Shown here: in pieces, positions 23,950-53,021 of the stretch
Layout of the letters: every line of letters starts with the position of its first letter
Numbering within the stretch: the stretch's first letter is position 1
Notes under the pieces: model-generated
Databases searched by the model: none
The model's input: the letters and a program-made list of their open reading frames with translations, nothing else
What the model was told of the DNA's origin: nothing
Origin: a virus
Lineage: Duplodnaviria; Caudoviricetes
IMG/VR virus record: IMGVR_UViG_3300026522_000023
Location: 1-64,000 of that record
Reading direction: 5' to 3' (one strand)
Length of the DNA stretch: 64,000 nucleotides
Position numbers and translations under genes: made by a program

Positions 23950-24328
23950 AATAAAAAATATTGAAAGCGCAACTTTTTATGATAAAGATGGAAATGAAGT
24001 TTTATATTGTAATGGAATAAATAATAGAATCAATCTTTCAGTAGATTCTAATGATTTAAAAGTGTATGGTGGAAAAGGTAATCCTAATATTAGCTAGATA
24101 CATTATGAAAAAATTTTAAACCTTTCATTACAAATGGATGAAATTAATATTCCATAGAGTCTGCTCCGCCCGGAGAGGATAGACACAACCGAAAACCTAA
24201 ATCAAAATGACGATTAGAAAATTTTCGATCAAAATGAATGGACTAAATTTTTATCTATGTTAGATTCGCCTCCACTAGAAGAAGAATTAACTTTAATTGG
24301 AAATGAATTTTTAAAGGATAAAGAATAA
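23915..24328 (+). CDS. Hypothetical protein; N-half resembles phage tail-tube N-termini
   Basis: Open with TAG=Gln; ATFYD...VLY...VYGGKGNP; start uncertain. Confidence 0.5.
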
Positions 24329-24331
24329 AAT

Positions 24332-24613
24332 ATGGAAGAATTAAAAAAAGTAGTAATGAAAGCACAACAATTTGATAATATATCAGAAAATTTACAAAAT
24401 ATAGAAAAACATACAAAAGGTTTTATGTATGATAGTCTTTGTTATAGATATCAACTTGCTAGGTATAAAGCCTGCGAAGCAGATGCTATGGATTTAGTTA
24501 TAACAAAAGGTTTATCTAAAAGAGAAGCTGAAGCTAAAGCTAGAGATTTATATGAAAGAGATTGCCTACGGTTTTATCAAATTTTAGATGAAGCAATTGG
24601 AGAACATGATTAA
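24332..24613 (+). CDS. Hypothetical protein
   Basis: ORF track; ends ILDEAIGEHD. Confidence 0.65.
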   Translation: MEELKKVVMKAQQFDNISENLQNIEKHTKGFMYDSLCYRYQLARYKACEADAMDLVITKGLSKREAEAKARDLYERDCLRFYQILDEAIGEHD

Positions 24614-24941
24614 TGAAAAAGAAATATTATCGTAAGCGAGATAATAATTTTTATTTAGATAAAACTAAAGAAGAAATTTTATCAGAAATTGATTATGATA
24701 ATCCAGAAACTTTTTTACCGTATCTTGAAATACTAGATTATCTATATCTTGAATGTGAATGGAATCATTGTCTTCAACTTGGAAGAGAGCGCGATTTAAA
24801 TAATATTTTTGGTAGGTATATTGCACTAATGCGTCTAAAAGGATATAAAAGTTTTTCATATCAAGATAGCGATTATTTAAATAATGCGAGAAAGAAAAAT
24901 GATGAAATTTTAGATGAAGTGATTGGAGAGCATGATTAATG
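24579..24941 (+). repeat. 37-bp imperfect direct repeat (24579-24615 and 24905-24941)
   Basis: AAATTTTAGATGAAG(CA/TG)ATTGGAGA(A/G)CATGATTAATG, three mismatches. Confidence 0.85.
24613..24939 (+). CDS. Hypothetical protein
   Basis: ORF track; ends ILDEVIGEHD. Confidence 0.65.
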   Translation: MKKKYYRKRDNNFYLDKTKEEILSEIDYDNPETFLPYLEILDYLYLECEWNHCLQLGRERDLNNIFGRYIALMRLKGYKSFSYQDSDYLNNARKKNDEILDEVIGEHD

Positions 24942-25157
24942 TGGATTTATTGGAAAGAGCAATGTAATTATTGCTCTAATTATAAAGGTTGTACTTATTA
25001 TGATAAAGTCCAAGAATTAATTTCTCAACTAGATAGTATAGATAGGCACGCAGTAGGTGTTTATGGGACATTAAAATGGACTTGTGATTATTTTAAAATT
25101 AATACAGATAAATATTATAAATTAAATCCTGGAGAAAACTGTAATGATTCTAACTGA
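24939..25157 (+). CDS. Small Cys-rich hypothetical protein
   Basis: CNYC..C...C; TAATG coupling. Confidence 0.6.
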   Translation: MWIYWKEQCNYCSNYKGCTYYDKVQELISQLDSIDRHAVGVYGTLKWTCDYFKINTDKYYKLNPGENCNDSN

Positions 25158-25194
25158 AATGAATTAGATTTTAATGAAATGGAGGAAGTAAAAC

Positions 25195-26393
25195 TTGATT
25201 CTAACCCGTAAGCAAGAAGAAGGTTTGAAAATTGCTGTAGCCAGATACAAAAGTAATGAACATTACACTTGTATTGCTGGCTACGCTTAACTGGAAGTGG
25301 CAAAAGCACTTTAATTAAATTTATTATTTCAGCTTTAGATGTTGATCCAGAAACAGAAGTATGTTATGTTGCTTTTACTGGGAAAGCAGCTACTGTTCTT
25401 CAATAGAAGGGGTGCCCTAATGCTACTACAGCTCATAAATTATTATATAAAGCTCGTATGCTGCCAAATGGAAGATATAAATTTACTCCAAAATCTAATG
25501 AAGAATTATCTCAATATAAAGTAATTGTAGTTGATGAAGTTTCTATGCTTCCTTCGGCTATGTGGCACCTTTTATTGAGTCATGGTATTTATATTATAGC
25601 AGCTGGAGATCCCGGTCAGCTACCTCCAATAGAAGAAGCAGACAATAACCATATTTTAGATAAACCCCACATTTTTTTAGATGAAATTATGCGGCAAGCG
25701 CAAGATAGCGAAATTATTCGATTGTCAATGTGGATTAGAGATGGAAAGCCTATTTACTCTTATAAACCTGATGGAAATTAGGTGATGATTATTAATTTGT
25801 CTTAGCTTCGAGAAGGAATGTATGAATGGGCAGACCAAATCATTTGCGCGACTAATGATAGAAGAACTTTATTAAATCAAACTGTCAGAAAATTAAAAGG
25901 TTTTACATCTGACGAGCCAGAAATTGGTGATAAAATTATTAGTTTACATAATAATTGGGATTTTTCTTCTGCTTCTGGAACTTGGGCTTTAACAAATGGT
26001 ATGATTGGTACTTTAACTAATTATTATAATACAGTGGAAAGAGTACCTTTATATATTTATGATAAACCAATTATTTATATGAATGCTACTTTTGATCTAG
26101 AAGATGGAGATTATTTCCAAGATGTTCCCATTGATTATGAACAATTAAAAAGTGGCTAGGCTACTTTAACTGGACCACAATGCTATAAAATGAGAAAAAA
26201 TTAGATGTGTCCAGACCCTCCTTTTGATTTTGCTTATGCTTATGCTATTAGTTGTTGGAAGGCACAAGGAAGTGAATATGATAAAGTGTTAGGATTTGAA
26301 GAAGGGCATCCACATGATAAATTAACACATACATAGTATTTGTATACTATGGTGACTAGAGCAAAAGAAAAAATTGTTATTGTAAAGAAATGA
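25195..26393 (+). CDS. RecD/Dda-like SF1B helicase, interrupted by a 5-nt insert (25288-25292) in Walker A; recoded gene or pseudogene
   Basis: GGAGG RBS, TTG start, LTRKQ..IAGYA[TAACT]GSGKST, AFTGKAA, VDEVSM, GDPGQLPP, IMRQ, YAISCWKAQGSE, LYTMVTRAK. Confidence 0.85.
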
Positions 26394-26457
26394 TTACAGA
26401 AAATATTATTTTAACTATTGATTTTGATATTATTATGGCTCCTAGTATTTGCTATTA

Positions 26458-26486
26458 TTGATTTTTTCACAAAATTATGTTATAAT
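26458..26486 (+). promoter_or_regulatory. SigA-type promoter for dnaE
   Basis: TTGATT-17-TATAAT with TG. Confidence 0.75.
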
Positions 26487-26516
26487 ATTTATAGAAATGT
26501 AAGAAAGGATAATTAA

Positions 26517-29500
26517 ATGAGAAGTTATTTTGGTATTCATAATCACACTCATTATTCTAATATTAGACTATTAGACTCAATTAATCGTCCTCAAGCATTA
26601 ATTGATAAAGCTATCGAATTAGGTTTATCTGGAATAGCAATTACTGACCATGAATGTTTATCTGCGCATATGGAAGTTAATCAATATGCGAAGAAATTAT
26701 AGGAAACAAATCCTGATTTTACTATCGCATTTGGTAATGAAATTTATTTAACTGAAACTCGTCAAACTGGACAAAAATATTATCACTTTTTATTATTAGC
26801 TAAAGATGCTATTGGTCATAAAGCATTAAGAGAATTAAGTTCTATTGCTTGGATTAATAGCTATATTGATAGACGTATGGAACGTGTTCCTACTTTAAAA
26901 AGCGAATTAAAAGATGTAATGTCTAAATATAAAGGTCATGTTATTGCTACTACAGCTTGTATTGGTGGAGAACTTGGTAGCTGTTTACTTCCAATGTATG
27001 AAGCTAATTTAGTTAATGACCAAAATACAGTAACTAATTATTCAATTCAAATAATGGATTTTATTAATTATTGTATTGAAGTATTTGGTGAAGATGATTT
27101 TTATCTTGAGTGTGCGCCTTCTAATAAAGAAGACCAGATGATTGTTAATAGACAAATTTATAAAATATCTCAATCTACTGGATTGAAAATGGTAATTGGT
27201 ACTGACTCTCATTATTTAACAAAAGAAGATAGAGCAATTCATAAAGCGTATTTAAATTCTAAAGAAGGCGAACGAGAAGTTGATACTTTCTATGAATTTG
27301 CACATTTAATGACAAGCGATGAAATCTTTGAATTAATGGAAAGTGATGCTGACACTTGGGATAGTAATAAATCAGGAAAAGAAATTTTAGATTGGATTTT
27401 AGATAATACTCAAAAAATTCAAAGTAAAATTTCTTTTTATTCTTTAGAAAGAAAGCAGATTATTCCAAAAGTAGAAGTAACTGATTATCCTCAATCATTA
27501 GCTGGTTGGTTTGAGCGCACAGAAAAATATCCTATTTTATGTAGCTTATTAATGAGTGATAACCCACAAGAAAGATATTGGGTTAATGAATGTTATATGT
27601 CTTTATTAGAAAAGATGTATGATAAAAGTATTTCAGATGATAAGTTAGATATTTATTTAAATCGTCTTGAAATTGAAGCTGATATTATTAAAGATATTGG
27701 TGAAAAATTGGATGATTGTTTGTTTGCTTATTTTAATACTTTTAAACACTATATTGATTTGTTTTGGAAATGCGGTTCTATTGTAGGCCCTGGTCGTGGT
27801 TCAGCAACAGGATTTTTATCCAATTATTTATTAGGTATTACACAGCTTGATCCTATTCGCTGGGGTTTACCTTATTGGCGTTTTTTAAATAAAGAACGTG
27901 CTGAATTACCTGATATTGATATTGATCTTGCACCAAGTAAACGTCCTGCTATTTTTAAAGCAATTCGTGAGGAACGTGGTGATTTAGGCTTAGTCCAAGT
28001 TGCTACATTTGGTACTGAAGGAACTAAATCTGCGGTATTAACAGCTTGCCGTGGATATAGATCAGAAGATTTTCCAGAAGGTATTGATAATGATCAAGCA
28101 CAATATATGTCTTCTCTAATTCCTCAAGAAAGAGGATTCTTATGGCCAATTCATGATGTTATTTATGGCAATGAAGAAAAAGACCGCAAGCCAATTCAAG
28201 CTTTTATTAGAGAAGTAAATCAATATGATGGCCTGTTAGATATTATTATTTATATTGAAGGTATTATTAATAAACGTTCTTCTCATGCTTCTGGTGTTAT
28301 TTTATATGGTGATGACCCATTTGAAACAGCATCTTTTATGCGTACTCCCAGTGGTGATATTATCACTTGTTATGATTTGCATAAAGCAGAGGCAGCAGGC
28401 GATACTAAATATGATTTCCTTGTAACTGAAGCATCTGATAAAATAATTACTTGTTATCAATTACTATTAAAGGATAATCAAATCCCTGATTTACCTTTAA
28501 GAGAATTTTATAATAAATATATTCATCCAGAAGTAATAGACACAACAGATCAACGTATTTGGGATCACTTGGCGGCTGGCGATGTACTTGATGTATTCCA
28601 GTTCTCTACTGGAGTTGGATTAGCAATTGCTAAGAGATTAAAACCGCAAAATCCTATGGAAATGACGGCAGCAAATGCTATGATGCGTTTAATGTCTGAA
28701 AAAGGTAAAGAATCTCAGCAAGATAGATATTATCGAATTCAACATCAAGGTATTCAAGTATTCGACGCTGAAATGAAGCAAAATCATTTGCCACAAGATT
28801 TAATTGATAAATTTCACAAGCATTGTGATAAATATTATGGTTGTTGTCCTATTCAGGAACAAATGATGGAAATTCTTATGGATATTGCGGGATTTACTTT
28901 AGGTGAAGCAAATAGCGCTCGTAAAGTTGTTGCTAAAAAACAAATGTCAAAGATTCCACAATTAAAAGAGCAAGTATTTAGTAAATTTGATGATCCTAAA
29001 GTTGCTGAATACTTCTGGGAAATTGCGGTTGCTCCACAATTAGGTTATGCTTTTAGTTTAAATCATTCTTTACCTTATTCTTTTGTAGCAATTCAAATGA
29101 TTTATTTAGTAATAAATTATAATCCTATTTATTGGGATACCGCTTGTTTAATTGTTAATAGTGGTTCATTGGAAGATAATACGGAAGAAGAGCTAGTCGA
29201 TATTTATGCTCCTGAAGGTGACGATTTAGCAAATGGTGTAGCATTTGAAGATTTACCAGATAAGAGCGCAAAAATTAGAAGAACTGTTTCAACTGATTAT
29301 GGAAAAATTGCTAAAGCTATTAGTGATATTCAAAAAGCAGGTATTGAAGTCGGTTTGCCAGATATTAATAAATCTAAGTTTGGTTTTGCTCCTGATATTG
29401 AAAATAATAAAATTCTTTTTGGATTAAAAGGAATGTTGAATGTTGGTGATGATTTAGTTAATACCATTATTACTAACCGTCCATATATTTCTCCAAAAGA

Positions 29501-30512
29501 TTTTTTATATAGAATTAAGCCTAGTAAACAAGCTATGATATCTCTTATTAAAGGCGGTGCTTTTGATAATATGATGGATAGAAAATTATTAATGGGCTGG
29601 TATATTTGGGAAACTTGTGATAAAAAGAGTCGTATTACTTTATAGAATATGAGTAGCTTAATTAAATATAAATTATTACCAGAAGATACTGATAAGCAAA
29701 TTATGGCTCGTCGTGTTTTTGAATTTAATAGATATTTAAAAGCAGTTTGTAAAGATACAGCAAGTTTTTATAAATTAGACACAAGAGCAATTAATTTCTT
29801 AGTTGAAATTGGTGAAGATAATTTAATTGAAGAGGGCACGAAGTTAGATCAAAAGATATGGGATAAAAAAGTCTATCAACCTTGGATGGATGTATTCCGC
29901 GATTGGATTAGTGAAAATAAAACAGAAATTCTTGAAAATTTAAACGCAGTTATTTTTAAAGAAGACTGGGATAAATATACTGGTAAAAATAATTTATCAG
30001 CCTGGGAAATGGAAGTACTTTGCTTCTATTATCACAGTCACGAATTGAAAGACATTAATAATAAAAAATATGGATTCGCAGATTTCTTTGCTCTTCCGCA
30101 AGAACCAGAAGTAGATAGAAACTTCTCCAAAGGTGGTAAGACAATTCATATCTATAAATTAAATACAATCTGCGGTACGTGTATTGCTAAAAATAAAACT
30201 AAAAGTACTGTTACTATTCTTACTACTACTGGTCCTGTTGAAGTAAAATTCAGAAAAGAATATTTCAGTTTATTTGATAAACAAATTTCAGAAAAAGGAT
30301 CGGATGGAGTAAAACATATCGTCGAAAAGTCTTGGTTTAACCGAGGAAGTATGATTGTAGTTATGGGCGTGCGCCAAGGAGATAATTTTATAGCTAAAAA
30401 ATATGCTTCTTCTCCTGGTCACCAGTTATATAAAATTGATGAAATTTTTGATGATGGAACTATTACATTACGTAATACTCGTTATCAGGGAGGAATAGAA
30501 GAAGATGTATAA
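26517..30512 (+). CDS. dnaE: DNA polymerase III alpha subunit (family C)
   Basis: PHP HNHTHYS/AITDH, GPGRGSA, PDIDID, SSHASGV, KYDFL, YAFSLNHS; TAGs at 26700 and 29643. Confidence 0.95.
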
Positions 30513-31077
30513 AATTGTAGCCATTATGGGCAAAGCGGGAAGCGGGAAGGATAGTCTTATGAAGGCTATCCTTCACCATGACACCGAAAAAAATTTAAAT
30601 GAAATAATTAGTTATACTACTCGTCCAATTAGAGAAGGAGAGCAAGAAGGAATTAATTATTATTATGTTTCTAATGAAGAATTTTCTCAATTAGTATTAG
30701 AAAATAAAATGTTAGAAGCGACAGTATTTAACTCTTGGGGATATGGTACTGCCATTAATTCATTAAATGAAAACAAAATTAATATTGGAGTATTTAACCC
30801 TGCGGGGGTTGAAAGCTTAATGAAAGATTCTCGTATTAATTTAAAAGTATTCTATATTGAAGCTTCAGATAAAGAAAGATTAATTCGTCAGCTAAGTCGA
30901 GAAAGCGATCCTAATATTGAAGAAATATTTAGACGTTTTAAAGCAGATGAAATTGATTTTTCTGATTTATCAGATTTTAATTATACTACTATTAATAATG
31001 AAATTAAAAAAGATTTTTATCCTGCTGTATATGCTATGGGAAGGCAAATCCGCGATTGGGCAGACGGATTTAATTAA
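30505..31077 (+). CDS. gmk: Guanylate kinase
   Basis: GKAGSGKD, SYTTRPIREGEQEGINYYYV, YGT. Confidence 0.9.
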   Translation: MYKIVAIMGKAGSGKDSLMKAILHHDTEKNLNEIISYTTRPIREGEQEGINYYYVSNEEFSQLVLENKMLEATVFNSWGYGTAINSLNENKINIGVFNPAGVESLMKDSRINLKVFYIEASDKERLIRQLSRESDPNIEEIFRRFKADEIDFSDLSDFNYTTINNEIKKDFYPAVYAMGRQIRDWADGFN

Positions 31078-45245: not shown

Positions 45246-48200
45246 TTATCTTACAATTGGATCAAAAGTATATTGACAACCACTATTCTAAATATTAGAA
45301 ATTACTTCATTCATTGCTGCCATAATAGAACTTTCAAATTGAGCACGATAATAATATCTAATAGTACCAGTATACTTATTGCCCTTAGTTGGACCAAATG
45401 CAGTAGATTGAGTTAAAGAATTTGGCATACAAGCAAACTAACTTAATGGATATTTATTAGTACCTAACTGAATTAATAAAGCACCAGTTATTGGATATAC
45501 ATTATCAACTTTGCTACCAATAATATGCATACGACCAAAAGAATTACTATTTAAATTAAGTACTCCGTCTTTACATCCTTCTAAAACGAAAGATTTAGTT
45601 TTTCCACCAATTTGTGTTTCCTAAAAAGCATAACTACCAATATATAAACCTTTTAAGGAAGAGGAATAAGGAATACGTTCAACCTAATTTAAATTGGTTT
45701 TATAGAATGTATAATCACCTATTTTTTCTAAACAATCACTAAATTCAAAATACTATAAATTAGTTGCACCAAAAAATGTTCTACTATCTATTAAAGAAAT
45801 TTTATTACTCAATTTTGGACTAAAATAAATACCAGTAACATTAGTATTCATAATAAAAGCTGTTGCACTTTGACTACCACTAGTATTTTCAATACGAGTA
45901 ATAGATTGTCCATTATAAGTTGATGGCAATGTAATTTTTCCTCCTAAATATTTACACATATCAAAGAAATGTATGTAATAAGTATTATTAGAAGTATCTT
46001 TTCTTATTTCATAATATTGATGATTATCATCATTTTCTAAGATATTATCATAAACATTAACTAATTCTCCAATAGCATAGAAGGTACGATCAGCATATGC
46101 TAACTGTTTATTTAAATCAATTCTTACGCCATCTGGACTATCAGCAGCCCAGCCTGTTTGTTTCCAAGTTGTTTCAAAAGAAATCAATCCTTGCGCTGGA
46201 CGTGTTTCATCAGTATTAAAGTCATCCGCGTTGTTCTTATAGTAATAGAAATTATTAGGAACGGTGATTCTAGTACCGTATAAATAAGTTCCAGTTATCT
46301 TAGAAATACCATCACCATTCACAAAAGTAATTTCATATGATTTACGTTCGAATCCTGCAGTAAATACATAGTCTAATTTATTTGAATTTAACGTTAAGGT
46401 ATTCCAATTGTTTGAAGTAATCTAATCCTTTTTGTTTTCGTCTTTATCAACTGTAATTATGAAATTATTATTTTCATCTTTCCAGCCTTTAAAATCATCA
46501 ATAGGACGCTTTTCCTACAAAGTACCAAATGAAATATAATTATTCTTTGTTTTATCTGTAGGATCATCAAAGAAGGTTTGAGAAGAAGAACCGTCAGCAT
46601 TCTTAATTAACTTCTAAGTTTTTAAGATTTCTTGAGCAATAACATTTCCATCTTCATCTGTTTCTTCAACAATAAATTTTACAGAGTATTCCTTATTAAC
46701 ATTTTTTACAAAAATTGTTAAATTAGGATAAATAGATTGAAGTTCATTTTGAATAATATGCTCATCAATAGCTTCATTATTTTCAATATATACAATACCT
46801 GTGATATTAGGATTTTTCTAGTTTATACCTTTAAAAGTATTATCTTTATTATAAATCTAAGATTCATCATAAATTTTCTTTAGTAAGTCAGTGTAATTTA
46901 CTATTTTACTATGGATTTCCTCATAGCCATTTACCGTTTCATCAAGGTAGTAAATTAATCCATTCTTAATATCTAACGTAGTAATTTTACTAACTTCATT
47001 ATATGGGATTACATCTAATTGAAAATGTCCGTTATCTTTAAAGTATTGAACATTATCAGGATCTAATTCAATTTTATCATCATTCAATAATCTATATGGA
47101 CTCCATTGAACATCAACAAAATTAATTTCGCAATCTTTTAAATTACTTTTTTTACAACCAAGATAATAACGTCTTAATAACTCATAACTATAATATCCAA
47201 GATTGCCGCCTTCAATATCCATAGTTTTAATTTTAGTTTCAATTTGGTCATCATCTTTATCTGTTAAATTCTAGATATATAATCCTTTATTTTCATCTGC
47301 TACAACCAATCGTCTTGTAGTCGAATTAAGCGTAGGATTAACATAAGTAGTAATTAATTTATTTAATAAATTTGCTTCAATTAAAGTTAAATAATTAGTT
47401 TCACTAGTTAAATAAAGCGTATCTAATGCTACGCCTTTTGCAAATTCTACTCTTGGAATATTAGATCCAGTATTTCTAAAATTTTCTAATTTTTCACTTT
47501 TAGTTAAATTTAATGCTGGCTAATCTTTCTTAAAAGTAATATTACATAGATTCATTTCTTTTAATAAAGGCATACCAGTTTTAGGATAAGACCAATCATT
47601 AACATCTTTATTAAAATAAGCATATGGCTAACCATCTTCAATAGCAAGACCATCATAACCCAATAATAAATCTGTCATTTTATCTGCTTTACCTTCCATA
47701 GCAAATTCTTGGAAATATAATTTACTTAAATCTCCTAAAGATTTCATCTAATCAGTACCATAAATATAATATAACTATTCACGATAATTACCACTAGACA
47801 TAATACCTTTCTTTAAATCAGGAGCCGTAAATTTAACTGGACTTAATCCATTATATTTCTAAGAAGCAAAATTTGCTCCATCAGTACCAACAGTAACATA
47901 TGAATTACGTGCTGGCTACATTTCAATCCAATATTCGCCGTCAAAAATATGATTCTTTTCACCATATTCAATATTATCTTTCCAATATTGAGCATTAGTA
48001 ACTAAATTAGTCATACCTTGAGTATTAGTACCTTCAATCCATTTATCAGAAGTATTCTTTGGGTTATTCGCAGAAATACGACTTCTAATAAAATTACCTC
48101 CACTACCACTAGCATAACCATCAACAGTTAACCAAGAATCAATATAGTTAAGACGATTAGATAAAAATTGCGCGCGATATAAGTTACGGTCACCCTATAA

Positions 48201-51200
48201 AGCATAAAAATATTGGTCAGTTTCTACCGCATATTTGCCTTCATTAGTTAAACGACCAAATATAGTATTTTCAGCGGCTGAATTAGTAGGAATAATATAT
48301 TTATATTCTTCATCTAAATTTAATGCCAATAATGGGCGGTCACCCTTCACAGCATAACTATCAGGGAACACTGAAGGATCAGTTTTATACCATTTATCAA
48401 CAATCGCACTTTTATCACTATTGGTATCAGAATCTTTAGCAAAAATCTAAGTTACTTTAGATGGAGTATAAGACCCATTACTAAATCCCATTAATTGCTT
48501 ATATTTATCTACAATTTTGCTCTTAAAAAATTGATAAAAATTATTCCACAATACACTATCATTAGTAGAAAAACTTCCATCAATAGTGGCATCAACGTAA
48601 TATTCAAATGATGGAATACCAGTATTATTAATACCTAATTGAGTATCAATATCATAGAAAATTGGATACCAAATATAATGTTGAATTCCAGTCGCTTTTT
48701 CGATATTATTCTTTTGTGGACCCCACGAAGCAAACATCGCATTTTTACCACGAGAGTCATAACATTCAAAAATTTCAGTCATTAAGAAATAAGTTGCTAA
48801 ATATTCAATATTAAAATAATTACTTAACTCATTCTTAAATTTTGTTTGACGATATTCTTTACAATCTTTAGTATATGTTACTCCACCATAAGTAACAGGA
48901 GCCGGTAATAACCATCTATCATCAATATTAGCTTCATTCTGAATTAACTAATAATAAGATTCATTGGCATTAAATCTATCATTACTAATAGTATAAATAT
49001 TATTTTTTTCATCTTGTAAAATATAGTATATACCAGTCTTATAAACTTTATTTTCATTATTAGTTAAAGTAATTAAATTATAATCTATTCCATTTAATTT
49101 ATAATACTTTATTTCAGAATTAAATTCATCATTAGAAATTCCATATATATCATTACCCGCATCATTAGTTCCGGTAACTACATAATATTTTCCTTTTTCG
49201 TATAAAGCTTCTGCTAATCCATCTACTAAATTATATTGACCAATAGAAGGAATTTCATATAAAGTTCCACCAAAATCAATACTACAATCTAAGCAAGTAC
49301 TCCAAACCCAACTAACAGCATCCTCCCAGTTAGACATTAATGCTAGTAATAATTCACGAGAGGTATTAGCATTAGTACTATCAAATTTAACAGATTCCTA
49401 CCCTGGATTTGTAATAGTTATTTCAGTAGATTGTTGACCCGTAGTTTCATCAGTAATTTTATTAACTTTGATTCTATCTGGAGCCGTATTGGCTATACCA
49501 TTAACCCAGTCAGGTAAATCATCAGCGTAACTACCTGAAGCAGTATCTTTACATTCGAATAAAGCTTTTGAAATTAAATCATCATTAGCATTATATCTAA
49601 CTTCAAAAGAATCGGCTACCATTGGAGCACCATGAGTAGTTACCCCATTATTATTATCCATAATTGGAGGTCTAAATGATAATTTATAACGATTCCAAGG
49701 ATCGCGGAAAGAACAATAAGTTCTTGAGTTATTCTAGAACTCCCAACATTCAGCAATATCTCTTACTTTTGGTTTTCCTTCAATCTAATTCTATAAAACT
49801 TTTTTATTAGGCTTAAATCCAAAACATTCATCAGAGCCTTTGTCCAATAACATATTATATTTACCAATATATATAATATCACTTTCATTATTATATTGAT
49901 TATTATTGTCTGAAGGCCAATGGAAAGCTAAAACAGGGAATCCTTTCATGGAAGTTCTATAGTCATCAGTATTTCCATATAAATCATAGTTATCAAAAGA
50001 ATCTTTATAATCACAAATTGGATGCTATGAATAAGTTCCATTAACCAAATTAGCAAAACCTCGGTTATAATCACCAGAAGATTCCATAAAATCTATTTTT
50101 AATGTAAATTTATTTGTACCGACTGTCTCATTATCCATATAGAAGAATTCAATAAAGCATTTGCTATTTTTATTTAAAGTATTATTAGTTTTATCTTCTT
50201 CATATAATTTTTCAAATGGACCTTTATTCATAAACATTACATTTTTACATTTAGCTTTATAATTACGACGAGGATAATTTCTAGAAGAAGTTCCCTAAAC
50301 CTAAAAAGTACATCCATCAATAGTAGTAGTAAAACTAGGACAATGATGCATATAATAATTTTGGACAGGAGTGTAAATAACTTCTTTAGTTACACTATCC
50401 AAAATCGGAGGCCATTTTACAGGATCTAAATTTACTATATTATCTAGTTCACCACGAGCATAGGCAGCATCCAAAGGTACATTTATAAATTCTAAAGTAC
50501 CCGCTTGCGCGCCTTTATCTTTAGAATAAGGCAATCTATTCTAAGTATTTTCATTATTATTAGCAGTAGTTCGTAAAATAATATATGGCATCAAAGGTTC
50601 ATCTTGATGAGCGCTATTATAAGCTTTCATTCGCTGATAAGAAAAAACTTCATCTTGAATATCAGCTCGAGATTCATATAAATCTTTCTAATCCCAATAC
50701 TTAATATTTTTTTTATCAAAAGCATAATTCTATACAACTTCATGAATAGATAAATCTGTGTCATATACTCTAATACTATACAAATCAATATCACAAGTAT
50801 TAGACATAAATTTAATTACATCAGAATTAATACTCCACATTGAAGAACCACTACGACGAGCAACGCTAGTTAAAACACCATTCATAAAAATTTCTAATAA
50901 CTTAGAGTTGCCACCAACCATGCCTTCTTTTGCCTTTGTATAAACAAAAGTTAAATTTAACATCTTATCTTCAACAAAATCAACAGATACAGTTTCTTCT
51001 TTGCCATTTGCAGTAAATGTAGCGTCCTATGGACTAAAATAAATACCCAATGGATCTTCTTCTGAGCCATAAGCGCAAATTAAATTATTTTTTAAATCAA
51101 AAATCTACTCTAATCTATCATAAGTTAATTCATCATAAGTTGGAACTTCTGGATGTTTAGGTAAATATTCCTAAGTTAAGAAAGTATCATAATTTAAATA

Positions 51201-53021
51201 TGTACTCTGATTTCGGAATTCTTTCCAAGCATCATCATCAGTCCAATCCTATTTAGAAGAATCTGCTTCATCACTGGCTTTATAACGAGTATATTTAGTA
51301 ATAACCTTAGTATAATTCTAAGGATTTCTAATTTTAAATTGAATTTCAATAGTATGCGTAGAGGTAGCACTACCATTATCAAACTCCAATGAACCAATAG
51401 GAATAGAAATTTCAGCACCATTACTAATTCTTAAACAAGTTACATTATTTTCATCAAATAGCCAACCATTATTATACCAGTTAAAATTCTTAAACGTTGC
51501 ACGCTTACCATTAATTTCAAGAGTTTCTCTGCTTAATTTACTTTCTGAATTTGAACGTCCAGTAGCAACAAAATTAACTTTTAAATCACTTTCACGCGCT
51601 AACTTCATATCACGTAATGGATCAACTGAAATATCAAAAGTAAAATTACGAGAATAATCATACGGTTCTGTACCGACTTTAATAGTATAATAAGCGCTAT
51701 CATTTACAGCAAGATTAGTAATTTCCCAATATTCCCATTCAGCATTATTAGAAGTAATTTGTCTTGTACCAATTAATACACCATTTTTATATAAATAGAC
51801 TGTGGCAATTTGATTATTTGGATCTAATACTTTAAAAGGAATTCTAATTGTTTCATAAGTATAGTATTCTGTTTTAAAATTACCAGTCCAAATTAAAGGA
51901 ATTAAGCTCGTTCTATCTCTAATAGCAATTTCTTTAGTAATAAATGGCGTTCCATTACCTTTTATTCCATTCTAAGATAAATATAATTTTGCTTTAATAG
52001 TATGTTCTCCATGAGTAAAAACATCTTTTAAAGTAGTCGCTTTAGTTGAATTTAAAATAACTGTATCAGCAGTAATAGTAAAATCATCATTAGCTTGATT
52101 AATGTTATCTCCTTTATATTCTCTATTCAAAACTAGATAATCATCAAAATATACTTCTATAGTACGTTCTACTCCACTTGACATTAACCATGCTGTTCTC
52201 ACTGAACCATCATCAAAAGGATAAATATTAGAAAAATTATCTTCTTTCCAAGATAAATCCAAAGCATGTTTTGTAATAAATACAGTACGTTTAGTTGGAG
52301 CTAAAAATTTATTATTTTCAGGGTCTGGATTGTTAGTAATATCAAAAGTAATTTGATGAGTAGTTGAATCTCTTAATACTTCTGTTAAATCAAATGTTTG
52401 AGCAACATTATGATTGAATACAACTCTATCACTTTGCCAAATTACTTCATATCCTTCGCCAGATTTGCTTTGCTAGCTAACTGTTATTTGACCTTCTACA
52501 GACTCTGCTTGCGGCACGTTATCTATAGTACGGCACTTAACTAAAACAGTCACACTAGCCTATTCATTATTTAAAATATCTTGTGTACAATTTAAAGTTA
52601 AAGAAGTAGAACCTAGTACTTTTTTTTCAGAGCTTTCGTCACTTCCCCCACCCATTGTTAATTTTTCACATTTTGCACATTCTTCTCGATCTTCATTTAA
52701 TCCAGTTCCTATAATGCGATAAAAGCATCCATCTGAATTTAAAATTAAATCATTTATATGATAATTTGTTGTTGATAACTTACCAATCTCAATTAAATAA
52801 TCAATAGGATTCTCATCTATATCATATTCAATTTCTGCGTTATCATCAGTACCATATATTACCTATACGCCACTAGAACCAATGGGTAATTTATTCTCGT
52901 CGGCAGTATCTAAATAAATGCGGCCAGTATCAGTGGCAACATAAAAATATCCTTCAGTCTAAGGAAAATTTTTAATCTTTTCTTCTAGGCCTTGTACTGG
53001 ACGGAAATGAATTTTAGACAT
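45246..53021 (-). CDS. Giant (~2591 aa) virion-region protein: fibre-like N-terminus, LamG-like domain, CotH-kinase-like domain, LRR/BspA-like C-terminus
   Basis: Ten track fragments share one frame; QGTSSRNYPRRNYK, FTLKIDFMESS, GFPVLAF, YIGKYN, DSRGKN, WYPIFYDIDTQLG; IGDYTF/IGSYAF repeats. Absence of TAA/TGA was spot-checked, not fully verified. Confidence 0.75.

Follow-up and report, generated by a model that had tools for sequence, protein, structure and literature searches.

A stop-led five-base gap in the Walker A codons of a phage helicase gene, apparently brought by an HNH cassette and probably hopped over in translation

Results

A helicase gene in two frames

We analysed a stretch of 64,000 nucleotides of DNA of an uncultured gut phage, hereafter the window, which corresponds to positions 1 to 64,000 of the IMG/VR virus record IMGVR_UViG_3300026522_000023 (125.8 kb, estimated to be 63% complete). 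It contains a helicase gene that is broken by five bases, TAACT, within the codons of its nucleotide-binding loop. Positions 25279-25310 read GGC TAC GCT TAA CT GGA AGT GGC AAA AGC ACT, and the Walker A motif is contiguous (GYAGSGKST) only when the five bases are skipped. The first 31 codons, from a TTG start to GCT, occupy a single frame that is closed by the TAA, and the remaining 366 lie in the -1/+2 frame, which is open when TAG, found six times in frame in this part of the gene, is read as glutamine (Gln). Judged by its sequence, the gene is that of an SF1B Dda/RecD-like helicase, with a predicted P-loop NTPase core and a UvrD-like C-terminal domain; the domains are intact (Pfam AAA_30, 7.5e-19; AAA_19, 1.3e-15; UvrD_C_2, 3.5e-12) and identity to annotated Dda-like or RecD-like helicases of cultured phages is 33-41%. 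It is present as a single copy in the record. An earlier note on this DNA, made from the letters alone, had described a stop-containing insert of five nucleotides in the Walker A of an otherwise intact helicase with an intact ribosome-binding site (RBS), and both parts of that description stand: the letters are as given above, the Pfam matches cover the rest of the protein, and the Shine-Dalgarno sequence GGAGGAAG precedes the TTG (Table 1).

The five bases in independent data

The nearest relative, a 201-kb contig (L001) whose gene body is 98.2% identical to that of the window at the nucleotide level, has an uninterrupted helicase gene of 397 codons which reads GGT TAT GCC GGA AGT GGC without the five bases, so that the extra bases of the window are a real difference from L001. 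Contigs of four public sequencing runs cross the site without gaps and carry all five of them. These are the probable source run and three further runs, two of which come from other studies and one of which is an RNA library. The RNA library, from bovine gut, yielded a 2672-nt contig with no differences over 1095 nt; a bovine run that belongs to a different study and dates from 2025, an 878-nt contig with one difference over 878 nt; and a pig-gut run, a 1171-nt contig with seven differences over 780 nt. Another contig from pig gut, which diverges further, has GCC TGA CC GGA AGC at the site and thus keeps both the five bases and the stop. Since independent runs gave gap-free contigs, an assembly error, which the earlier note had listed among its alternatives, can be excluded.

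A family of gaps at one codon

Inserts of this kind recur at the same codon in related phages. A first scan with a degenerate pattern found ten further IMG/VR contigs in which the same 31-codon N-terminus is followed by T[A/G]AC[C/T], the five-base variants seen in relatives being TAACT, TAACC, TGACC and TGACT, and GGAGGAAG is conserved in ten close relatives that bear the same cassette (L005-L007 and L010-L016; the cassette is described below). In a sample of 80 homologues that was drawn by a profile of the gene body, and is therefore unbiased with respect to the junction pattern, 23 carry a stop-led insert of 5, 6, 7 or 8 nt right after the Ala codon of G-Y-A-G-x-G-K-S/T; the other 57 are uninterrupted, all with exactly G-[YF]-A-G-x-G-K. 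A wider pattern scan recovered at least 76 distinct junctions in IMG/VR (36 of 5 nt, 12 of 6, 14 of 7 and 14 of 8), besides four more with TAG as the gap stop and eight more in GenBank contigs of metagenome-assembled genomes (MAGs; rumen, sheep, deer and other gut samples). The seven-base variant TAAAGCA, that of L088, was also seen in run X3. These DNA scans fixed GGCTAY-GCN and the stop; the homology-based sample agrees with them, GCN standing directly before the stop in all 23 of its insert-bearing genes. Chance matches in unrelated genes were set aside (two of 12 pattern hits, L008 and L009, and two of 10, L176 and L177). Whether related phages have a similar insert, a check that had been proposed for the site, can thus be answered with stop-led inserts of 5-8 nt at the same codon in about 100 related genes.

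The four junctions with TAG all belong to standard-code phages without in-frame TAG, and most insert-bearing gene bodies likewise have no in-frame TAG. The insert is therefore not tied to the recoding of TAG, and the connection with release-factor changes in a recoded phage that had been suggested for it is not borne out. Among cultured phages the junction is absent from all best matches, every body match being below 60% identity. In Bacillus phage vB_BpuM-BpSp (L169, KT895374.1 49545-51084) a Dda-like helicase is annotated as two hypothetical proteins, gp065 and gp066, about 320 nt apart; the break lies elsewhere in the gene, not at Walker A. Insert-bearing phage contigs (L174-L183, 7-175 kb) are filed in MAGs named Gemmiger, Mollicutes, Endomicrobiaceae, Anaeroplasmatales, Clostridia and Bacilli, names that are probably binning noise, phage contigs having been sorted into bacterial bins, and that say nothing about the host.

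Selection on both sides of the gap

Nearly all complete insert-bearing bodies are open, over 349-388 codons. The bodies of L011 and L012, both with the insert, differ by 56 silent changes and one replacement, a ratio of replacement to silent divergence (dN/dS) of 0.004; the ratio is 0.03-0.05 within the L005 type, whose members all bear the insert, and 0.11-0.19 between types. On the other side of the gap, 59 distinct insert-bearing N-termini give a corresponding ratio for polymorphism (pN/pS) of 0.37 when read in the N-terminal frame, and of 1.0 and 1.5 in the two alternative frames. Selection in the N-terminal frame, together with open and constrained bodies, indicates that translation covers the gene before and after the gap, each part in the frame proper to it. 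A recent null mutation, also considered in the earlier note, is contradicted by the purifying selection on the bodies and by the recurrence of the insert at the same codon. Two insert-bearing relatives are atypical: the body of L140 ends after 107 codons, and that of L137, with 716 codons, may be a fusion.

Gap lengths and landing codons

The inserts span all three frame classes, and TAAGCT, TAAGTT, TGACT and TAACT occur together in one clade of the body tree; with gap lengths that vary even within a clade in this way, no single frameshift can serve them all. The six-base forms are in frame, and because they contain no start codon from the stop to the GK codons, re-initiation cannot give a protein with the P-loop. 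Of 34 distinct insert types with a length of at least 6 nt, 19 have GCN as the codon before the Gly, against a chance expectation of about 1 in 16; in the remaining 15 this codon is ACN, GTN or TCN, one mismatch away from GCN. A hop from the GCN before the stop to the codon before the Gly would always yield G-Y-A-G-x-G-K-S/T, the sole length found in uninterrupted homologues. TAACT, the form in the window, is TAAGCT minus its G, so that its presumed landing codon ACT, which matches GCT at two of three positions, borrows the last base of the stop. Inserts of 5-8 nt at one codon, mostly with Ala before the Gly, thus favour the layout that the earlier note had pointed out, namely a take-off codon GCU, an immediate stop, a near-matching ACU and resumption at GGA to give GYAGSGKST.

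A hairpin ending at the take-off codon

Insert-bearing genes share an mRNA hairpin that is specific to them, covaries, and ends at the codon before the stop. Folded over 63 nt ending at this codon, the window sequence gives -22.4 kcal/mol (z -4.6), a stability that none of 200 dinucleotide shuffles reached. The mean for 58 distinct insert-bearing sequences is -21.5 kcal/mol (z -4.5), compared with -10.4 kcal/mol (z -0.1) for 41 uninterrupted homologues (Mann-Whitney p=1.5e-15). The 3' arm, ...GGC TAC GC, pairs with a 5' arm, GC.GTA GCC..., which encodes the 'AVARY' typical of insert-bearing genes. On alignment A3 the pairing holds in 85% of cells, as against 27-44% when the partner is slid; compensatory changes are found at the pair joining Val/Ile GTA/ATA with TAC/TAT (G-C to A-U) and at the pair joining AGA/CGA with an Ile codon (A-U to C-G), and the covariation score lies above those of all 500 shuffles. 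RNAalifold applied to the ungapped 63-nt alignment returned only a trivial stem of three base pairs, the consensus fold being defeated probably because the stem occurs in two registers that place the bulge in different columns; the hairpin is seen by single-sequence folds and explicit pair counts. The small downstream stem that the earlier note had proposed (GAAGUG/CACUUU) does fold in the window but is not conserved (L012, L014), and the conserved structure is the one upstream.

An HNH cassette as the likely source of the gap

By sequence comparison, the insert appears to be the 3' end of a mobile, intron-less cassette with an HNH homing endonuclease. The whole element can be seen in L011 and L012, where the native N-terminus is cut at ...TCIAG (GGG TA) and then runs into a stop; a leader of about 60 nt is followed by a 171-codon HNH gene whose last codons overlap a new RBS and TTG, and then come the new N-terminus, the gap and the body, in that order. 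The HNH open reading frame (ORF) of L012 matches the PHROG family HNH endonuclease (E=7e-24) and, weakly, Pfam HNH_2 (20.4 bits, under the 21-bit cutoff), and its best matches in cultured phages are generic HNH endonucleases of at most 45% identity. In a tblastn search, this 171-aa ORF matched window positions 25152-25208 with 95% identity over its last 19 residues, the part from 25160 onward being cassette-derived. Intact HNH homologues (42-100% identity) lie directly upstream in 21 of the 76 insert-bearing loci listed, at all gap lengths, and in none of the 57 uninterrupted loci; in loci of the L005 type, what is left of the HNH gene is decayed and contains stops.

Genes with bodies of 61-70% nucleotide identity are 93-99% identical over the N-terminal 93 nt and the RBS, which together make up an island. 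Silent divergence (dS) is about 0.25 in this island versus 1.3-2.5 in the bodies; the left edge is sharp, and silent divergence is back right after the gap. On the body tree, the insert must have been gained or lost 15 times or more, and well-supported branches force at least 10 of these events. The window is the sister of the insert-less L001 and L011 lies inside an insert-less clade, which gives two pairs with and without the insert (window and L001; L011 and L020-L034). This patchy distribution, and the position of the window next to L001, suggest that the cassette is mobile and was acquired here recently. After the acquisition the window appears to have lost the endonuclease gene, with hairpin, stop and gap being kept, and as a consequence of this deletion the helicase would be expressed from the cassette's own TTG start. 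What remains of the original helicase start has been preserved by its overlap with the 3' end of an upstream gene of 72 codons (24939-25157).

The gap itself probably persists as an interruption of the endonuclease's own target, that is, as a form of self-immunity like the one put forward for T4 mobA/gene 60. This is suggested by the exclusive association of the HNH gene with the insert and by the fragment of the old gene in L012, which ends at GGG TA, 4 nt from the position of the gap. The 'intron-deletion scar' that had been offered as an alternative comes close in spirit; it is wrong in kind, since the element is an intron-less HNH cassette. A group I intron was also considered as a reading of L012 and rejected, as G-Y-A-G-S-G-K is not restored by any pair of splice sites and a search of window positions 24000-27000 against the Rfam families, group I introns among them, gave no match at E<=1.

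Table 1. Features at the helicase locus, in window coordinates
Feature	Position	Strand	Remarks
Relic of former helicase start (ATG ATT CTA ACT GAA A)	25144-25159	+	Identical to first 16 nt of the uninterrupted L001 gene; similarity to L001 ends here
3' remnant of HNH homing-endonuclease gene (predicted)	25160-25211	+	Last ~17 codons and TAA (25209-25211); left end of cassette remnant
Shine-Dalgarno GGAGGAAG of putative cassette-borne helicase start	25181-25188	+	Read in window sequence
Putative cassette-borne replacement helicase N-terminus	25195-25287	+	31 codons, TTG start, ends ...TCIAGYA
Upstream mRNA hairpin	25234-25286	+	3' arm: codons GGC TAC and first two bases of take-off codon
Proposed take-off codon GCT (Ala)	25285-25287	+	GCN directly 5' of stop in relatives
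5-nt coding gap TAACT	25288-25292	+	Between GCT (Ala) and GGA (Gly) of helicase Walker A
Gap stop TAA	25288-25290	+	
Proposed near-cognate landing codon ACT	25290-25292	+	Shares a base with TAA
Helicase body, Gly of GSGKST to stop	25293-26393	+	366 codons (25293-26390); TAA stop 26391-26393

Discussion

The two frames of this helicase gene are very probably joined by recoding of some kind, and a hop of tRNA(Ala) over the gap, which would yield GYAGSGKST, is a probable form of it. The system is most likely a short-range (5-8 nt), new variant of the endonuclease-borne translational bypass of T4 gene 60 and mobA. An HNH cassette would have invaded the Walker A coding site of a phage Dda/RecD-like helicase gene, the complete cassette consisting, in order, of an HNH gene, a ribosome-binding site, a replacement for the first 31 codons that folds into a hairpin ending at the Ala codon, and a short gap led by a stop. 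A ribosome with peptidyl-tRNA(Ala) on GCT would then meet the slowly decoded TAA, the peptidyl-tRNA would un-pair from GCT, the mRNA would slide by five bases, and the tRNA would re-pair with ACT at two of three positions; decoding would restart at GGA, and the product would be one polypeptide with the loop GYAGSGKST and the predicted junction peptide …SNEHYTCIAGYAGSGK. The 3' arm of the hairpin would lie inside the ribosome while GCN is in the P site, and sliding forward by 5-8 nt would release the GC-rich lower stem, GTAGCC/GGCTAC, whose re-forming on exit from the ribosome may aid, or even drive, the slide. On balance, we incline to the view that short-range bypass is a widespread natural strategy, in which a re-forming hairpin pulls peptidyl-tRNA(Ala) over a stop in the P-loop and HNH enzymes spread the module as self-immunity.

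Several observations weigh against a hop of this kind. The landing codon of the window, ACT, matches GCT at only two of three positions and overlaps the stop, and a gap of 5 nt leaves no space for the take-off stem-loop on which T4 gene 60 depends. Landing codons for Ala, Thr, Val and Ser could instead reflect a protein that tolerates one more small residue. The part played by the hairpin is deduced from a correlation, and the structure could serve the expression of the HNH gene or the stability of the mRNA; cleavage of the uninterrupted site by the HNH enzyme is presumed. Finally, the junction counts are not phylogenetically independent.

Part of the gap might instead be decoded. A short slide or a frameshift (-1 or +2) at GCT-TAA would lengthen the loop to GYA-LT-GSGKST or GYA-T-GSGKST, with other shifts or stop readthrough at the other gap lengths. 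The -1 frame of every five-base variant reads YTR ACY, that is Leu-Thr, and the resulting A-LTGS-GKS, which the earlier note had also put forward, is formally a Walker A; a constraint on the protein fits the small residues encoded before the Gly equally well. Nevertheless, we consider this explanation unlikely. In 25260-25288, where the second frame runs open, there is no slippery heptamer of the form X XXY YYZ, and neither at -1 (CGC) nor at +2 could tRNA(Ala) find a codon to re-pair with. A -1 slip cannot account for the 6- and 7-nt forms; four mechanisms would be required for the forms of 5, 6, 7 and 8 nt, some of them in one clade, and a loop length that is otherwise invariant, in all 57 uninterrupted homologues, would have to vary. 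Alternatively, the gene might be in two pieces, translation ending at the TAA and a separate protein of 374 residues starting from the TTG at 25269 (MYCWLRLTGSGKST…), with the 31-residue peptide acting in trans or not at all. Phage genes are indeed split into working parts by homing-endonuclease insertions (T4 genes 39/60, Aeromonas phage nrdA), and this TTG lies in the second frame, 19 nt before the stop. However, it has no Shine-Dalgarno sequence, its frame shows a W/R replacement where the changes in the N-terminal frame are all silent, and the in-frame relatives with 6 nt offer no start codon between stop and GK; with the N-terminal frame under purifying selection, and with strand beta-1 and the first Gly parted from the rest of the P-loop under such an arrangement, two proteins seem highly improbable.

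That the five bases are removed or bypassed at the RNA level, through editing, a micro-splice or polymerase slippage, we find scarcely credible. Nothing speaks for it directly, and it would, like a hop, be independent of frame; however, the RNA-library contig keeps the insert unchanged (though such a library may hold DNA), there is no homopolymer run for slippage, and neither the Rfam search nor any choice of splice sites in L012, as described above, provides for it. A dead gene or an artefact, whether a recent null mutation, a recombination scar or an assembly error, has a practically negligible probability in our view. The cassette of the window is recent, to judge by its absence from the sister L001; but about 90 other contigs have the junction too, as do sequencing runs of other studies and other host animals, the insert-bearing bodies have dN/dS values of 0.004-0.05 with undamaged frames, and no second helicase in the record could stand in for this one.

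To our knowledge, natural programmed bypassing is known from very few systems, namely T4 gene 60 with its homologues and the mitochondria of one yeast. The bypass of T4 gene 60 and mobA are said to have been described by Huang et al. in 1988 and Bonocora et al. in 2011. The element of MobA and gene 60 comprises an HNH ORF overlapping a new N-terminal extension, a region of homologous replacement, and a bypass cassette reaching as far as the landing codon (bioRxiv 10.1101/2022.08.31.505936); helicases are not mentioned in that paper. As for the force behind the slide, another preprint proposes pairing of the exiting mRNA as the driver of forward bypassing in gene 60 (bioRxiv 10.1101/2024.12.09.627546). 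Our locus resembles T4 gene 39/mobA/gene 60 in that an HNH ORF overlaps, out of frame, the start of an N-terminal piece which replaces the target's own sequence, the take-off codon is followed at once by the in-frame stop that opens the gap, the landing codon forms the end of the element, the element is mobile among related phages, and the mRNA 5' of the take-off site can pair. It differs in its target, which there is the large subunit of topoisomerase II and here the Walker A of an SF1B helicase; in its gap, of 50 nt there (20 nt in one clade) and of 5-8 nt here, without room for a take-off stem-loop; in its take-off codon, Gly GGA there and Ala GCN here, with a landing site that in the window is only near-cognate; and in the fate of the old upstream fragment, a working subunit there and redundant here. 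The HNH ORF, of about 170 aa as against about 270 in MobA, is set apart from MobA by its size and target, not by direct comparison. A full-text literature search found no report of bypassing in a helicase Walker A.

In its scale, the proposed hop comes closer to the non-programmed short hops over a stop or hungry codon that have been observed in Escherichia coli (Weiss, Atkins, Gesteland, 1987 onward; summarised in bioRxiv 10.1101/2022.08.31.505936). There, too, a slowly read codon in the A site makes the peptidyl-tRNA let go of the mRNA and pair again with a matching codon a short way downstream, in any frame and in steps of 5-9 nt. Those hops are inefficient and known from engineered or incidental settings, whereas here we find a conserved site in an apparently essential gene, a dedicated hairpin, and spread by what seems to be a mobile element. 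Two further systems may be compared. The byps of Magnusiomyces capitatus mitochondria, reportedly described by Lang et al. in 2014, are said to be short mobile inserts in coding genes that are likewise skipped between matching take-off and landing codons; unlike the present gaps they are mitochondrial, measure 27-55 nt, occur at many sites and have no endonuclease partner. In Aeromonas phage Aeh1, nrdA is split by mobE, a free-standing homing endonuclease which, as here, sits in the region of a replication gene that encodes the catalytic site, and the two polypeptides reassemble. The present cassette differs in bringing a full replacement N-terminus, and its break falls inside the P-loop, with no start codon after it.

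If the hop is true, it would add a large and diverse family to the known cases, about 100 genes in gut and rumen phages, with a minimal recoding signal of some 60 nt: a hairpin, an Ala codon, a stop and 2-5 spare bases. Natural gaps of every length from 5 to 8 nt, with landing codons from exact to near-cognate, would constitute a ready mutational series for the contribution of exiting-mRNA pairing to forward sliding. The hop would further speak for an origin of bypass elements as immunity devices of homing endonucleases, and bypassing could then be a general by-product of endonuclease warfare in phages, not an oddity of T4. On the practical side, gene callers split or discard these helicases, so that annotation pipelines under-call an essential replication gene.

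Other features of the window

In the window TAG is a sense codon, most likely for Gln. With this reading, long frames are open all along 1-64000, including an ORF at 45246-53021 of 2591 codons with 40 in-frame TAG. In the helicase gene, where TAG occurs for example at 25404-25406, one of the six in-frame TAG aligns with a CAA of the relative L002, which forms part of the case for Gln. No tRNA genes were found in the window.

Upstream of the helicase, two adjacent small genes (24332-24939, of 93 and 108 codons) both end in ...E(A/V)IGEHD, and BLAST detects 40-nt repeats at 24576-24615 and 24902-24941. Contigs of several runs part from the window exactly at 24941, which points to a recombination-prone boundary. 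Downstream, about 750 additional bases, missing from the window, separate the helicase gene of L001 from its DNA polymerase III alpha gene (L001 4139-4890, opposite window 26436-26446); the two ORFs found there, of 178 and 86 codons, match nothing in Pfam or PHROG. The polymerase gene of the window (26517-30512) is continuous; in L011, a 262-codon ORF on the minus strand with NUMOD3 motifs, of homing-endonuclease type (L011 9160-9945), interrupts the DNA polymerase III alpha gene. A guanylate-kinase-like ORF (30355-31077; Pfam Guanylate_kin, 1.5e-22) overlaps the end of the polymerase gene of the window by about 157 nt, in another frame.

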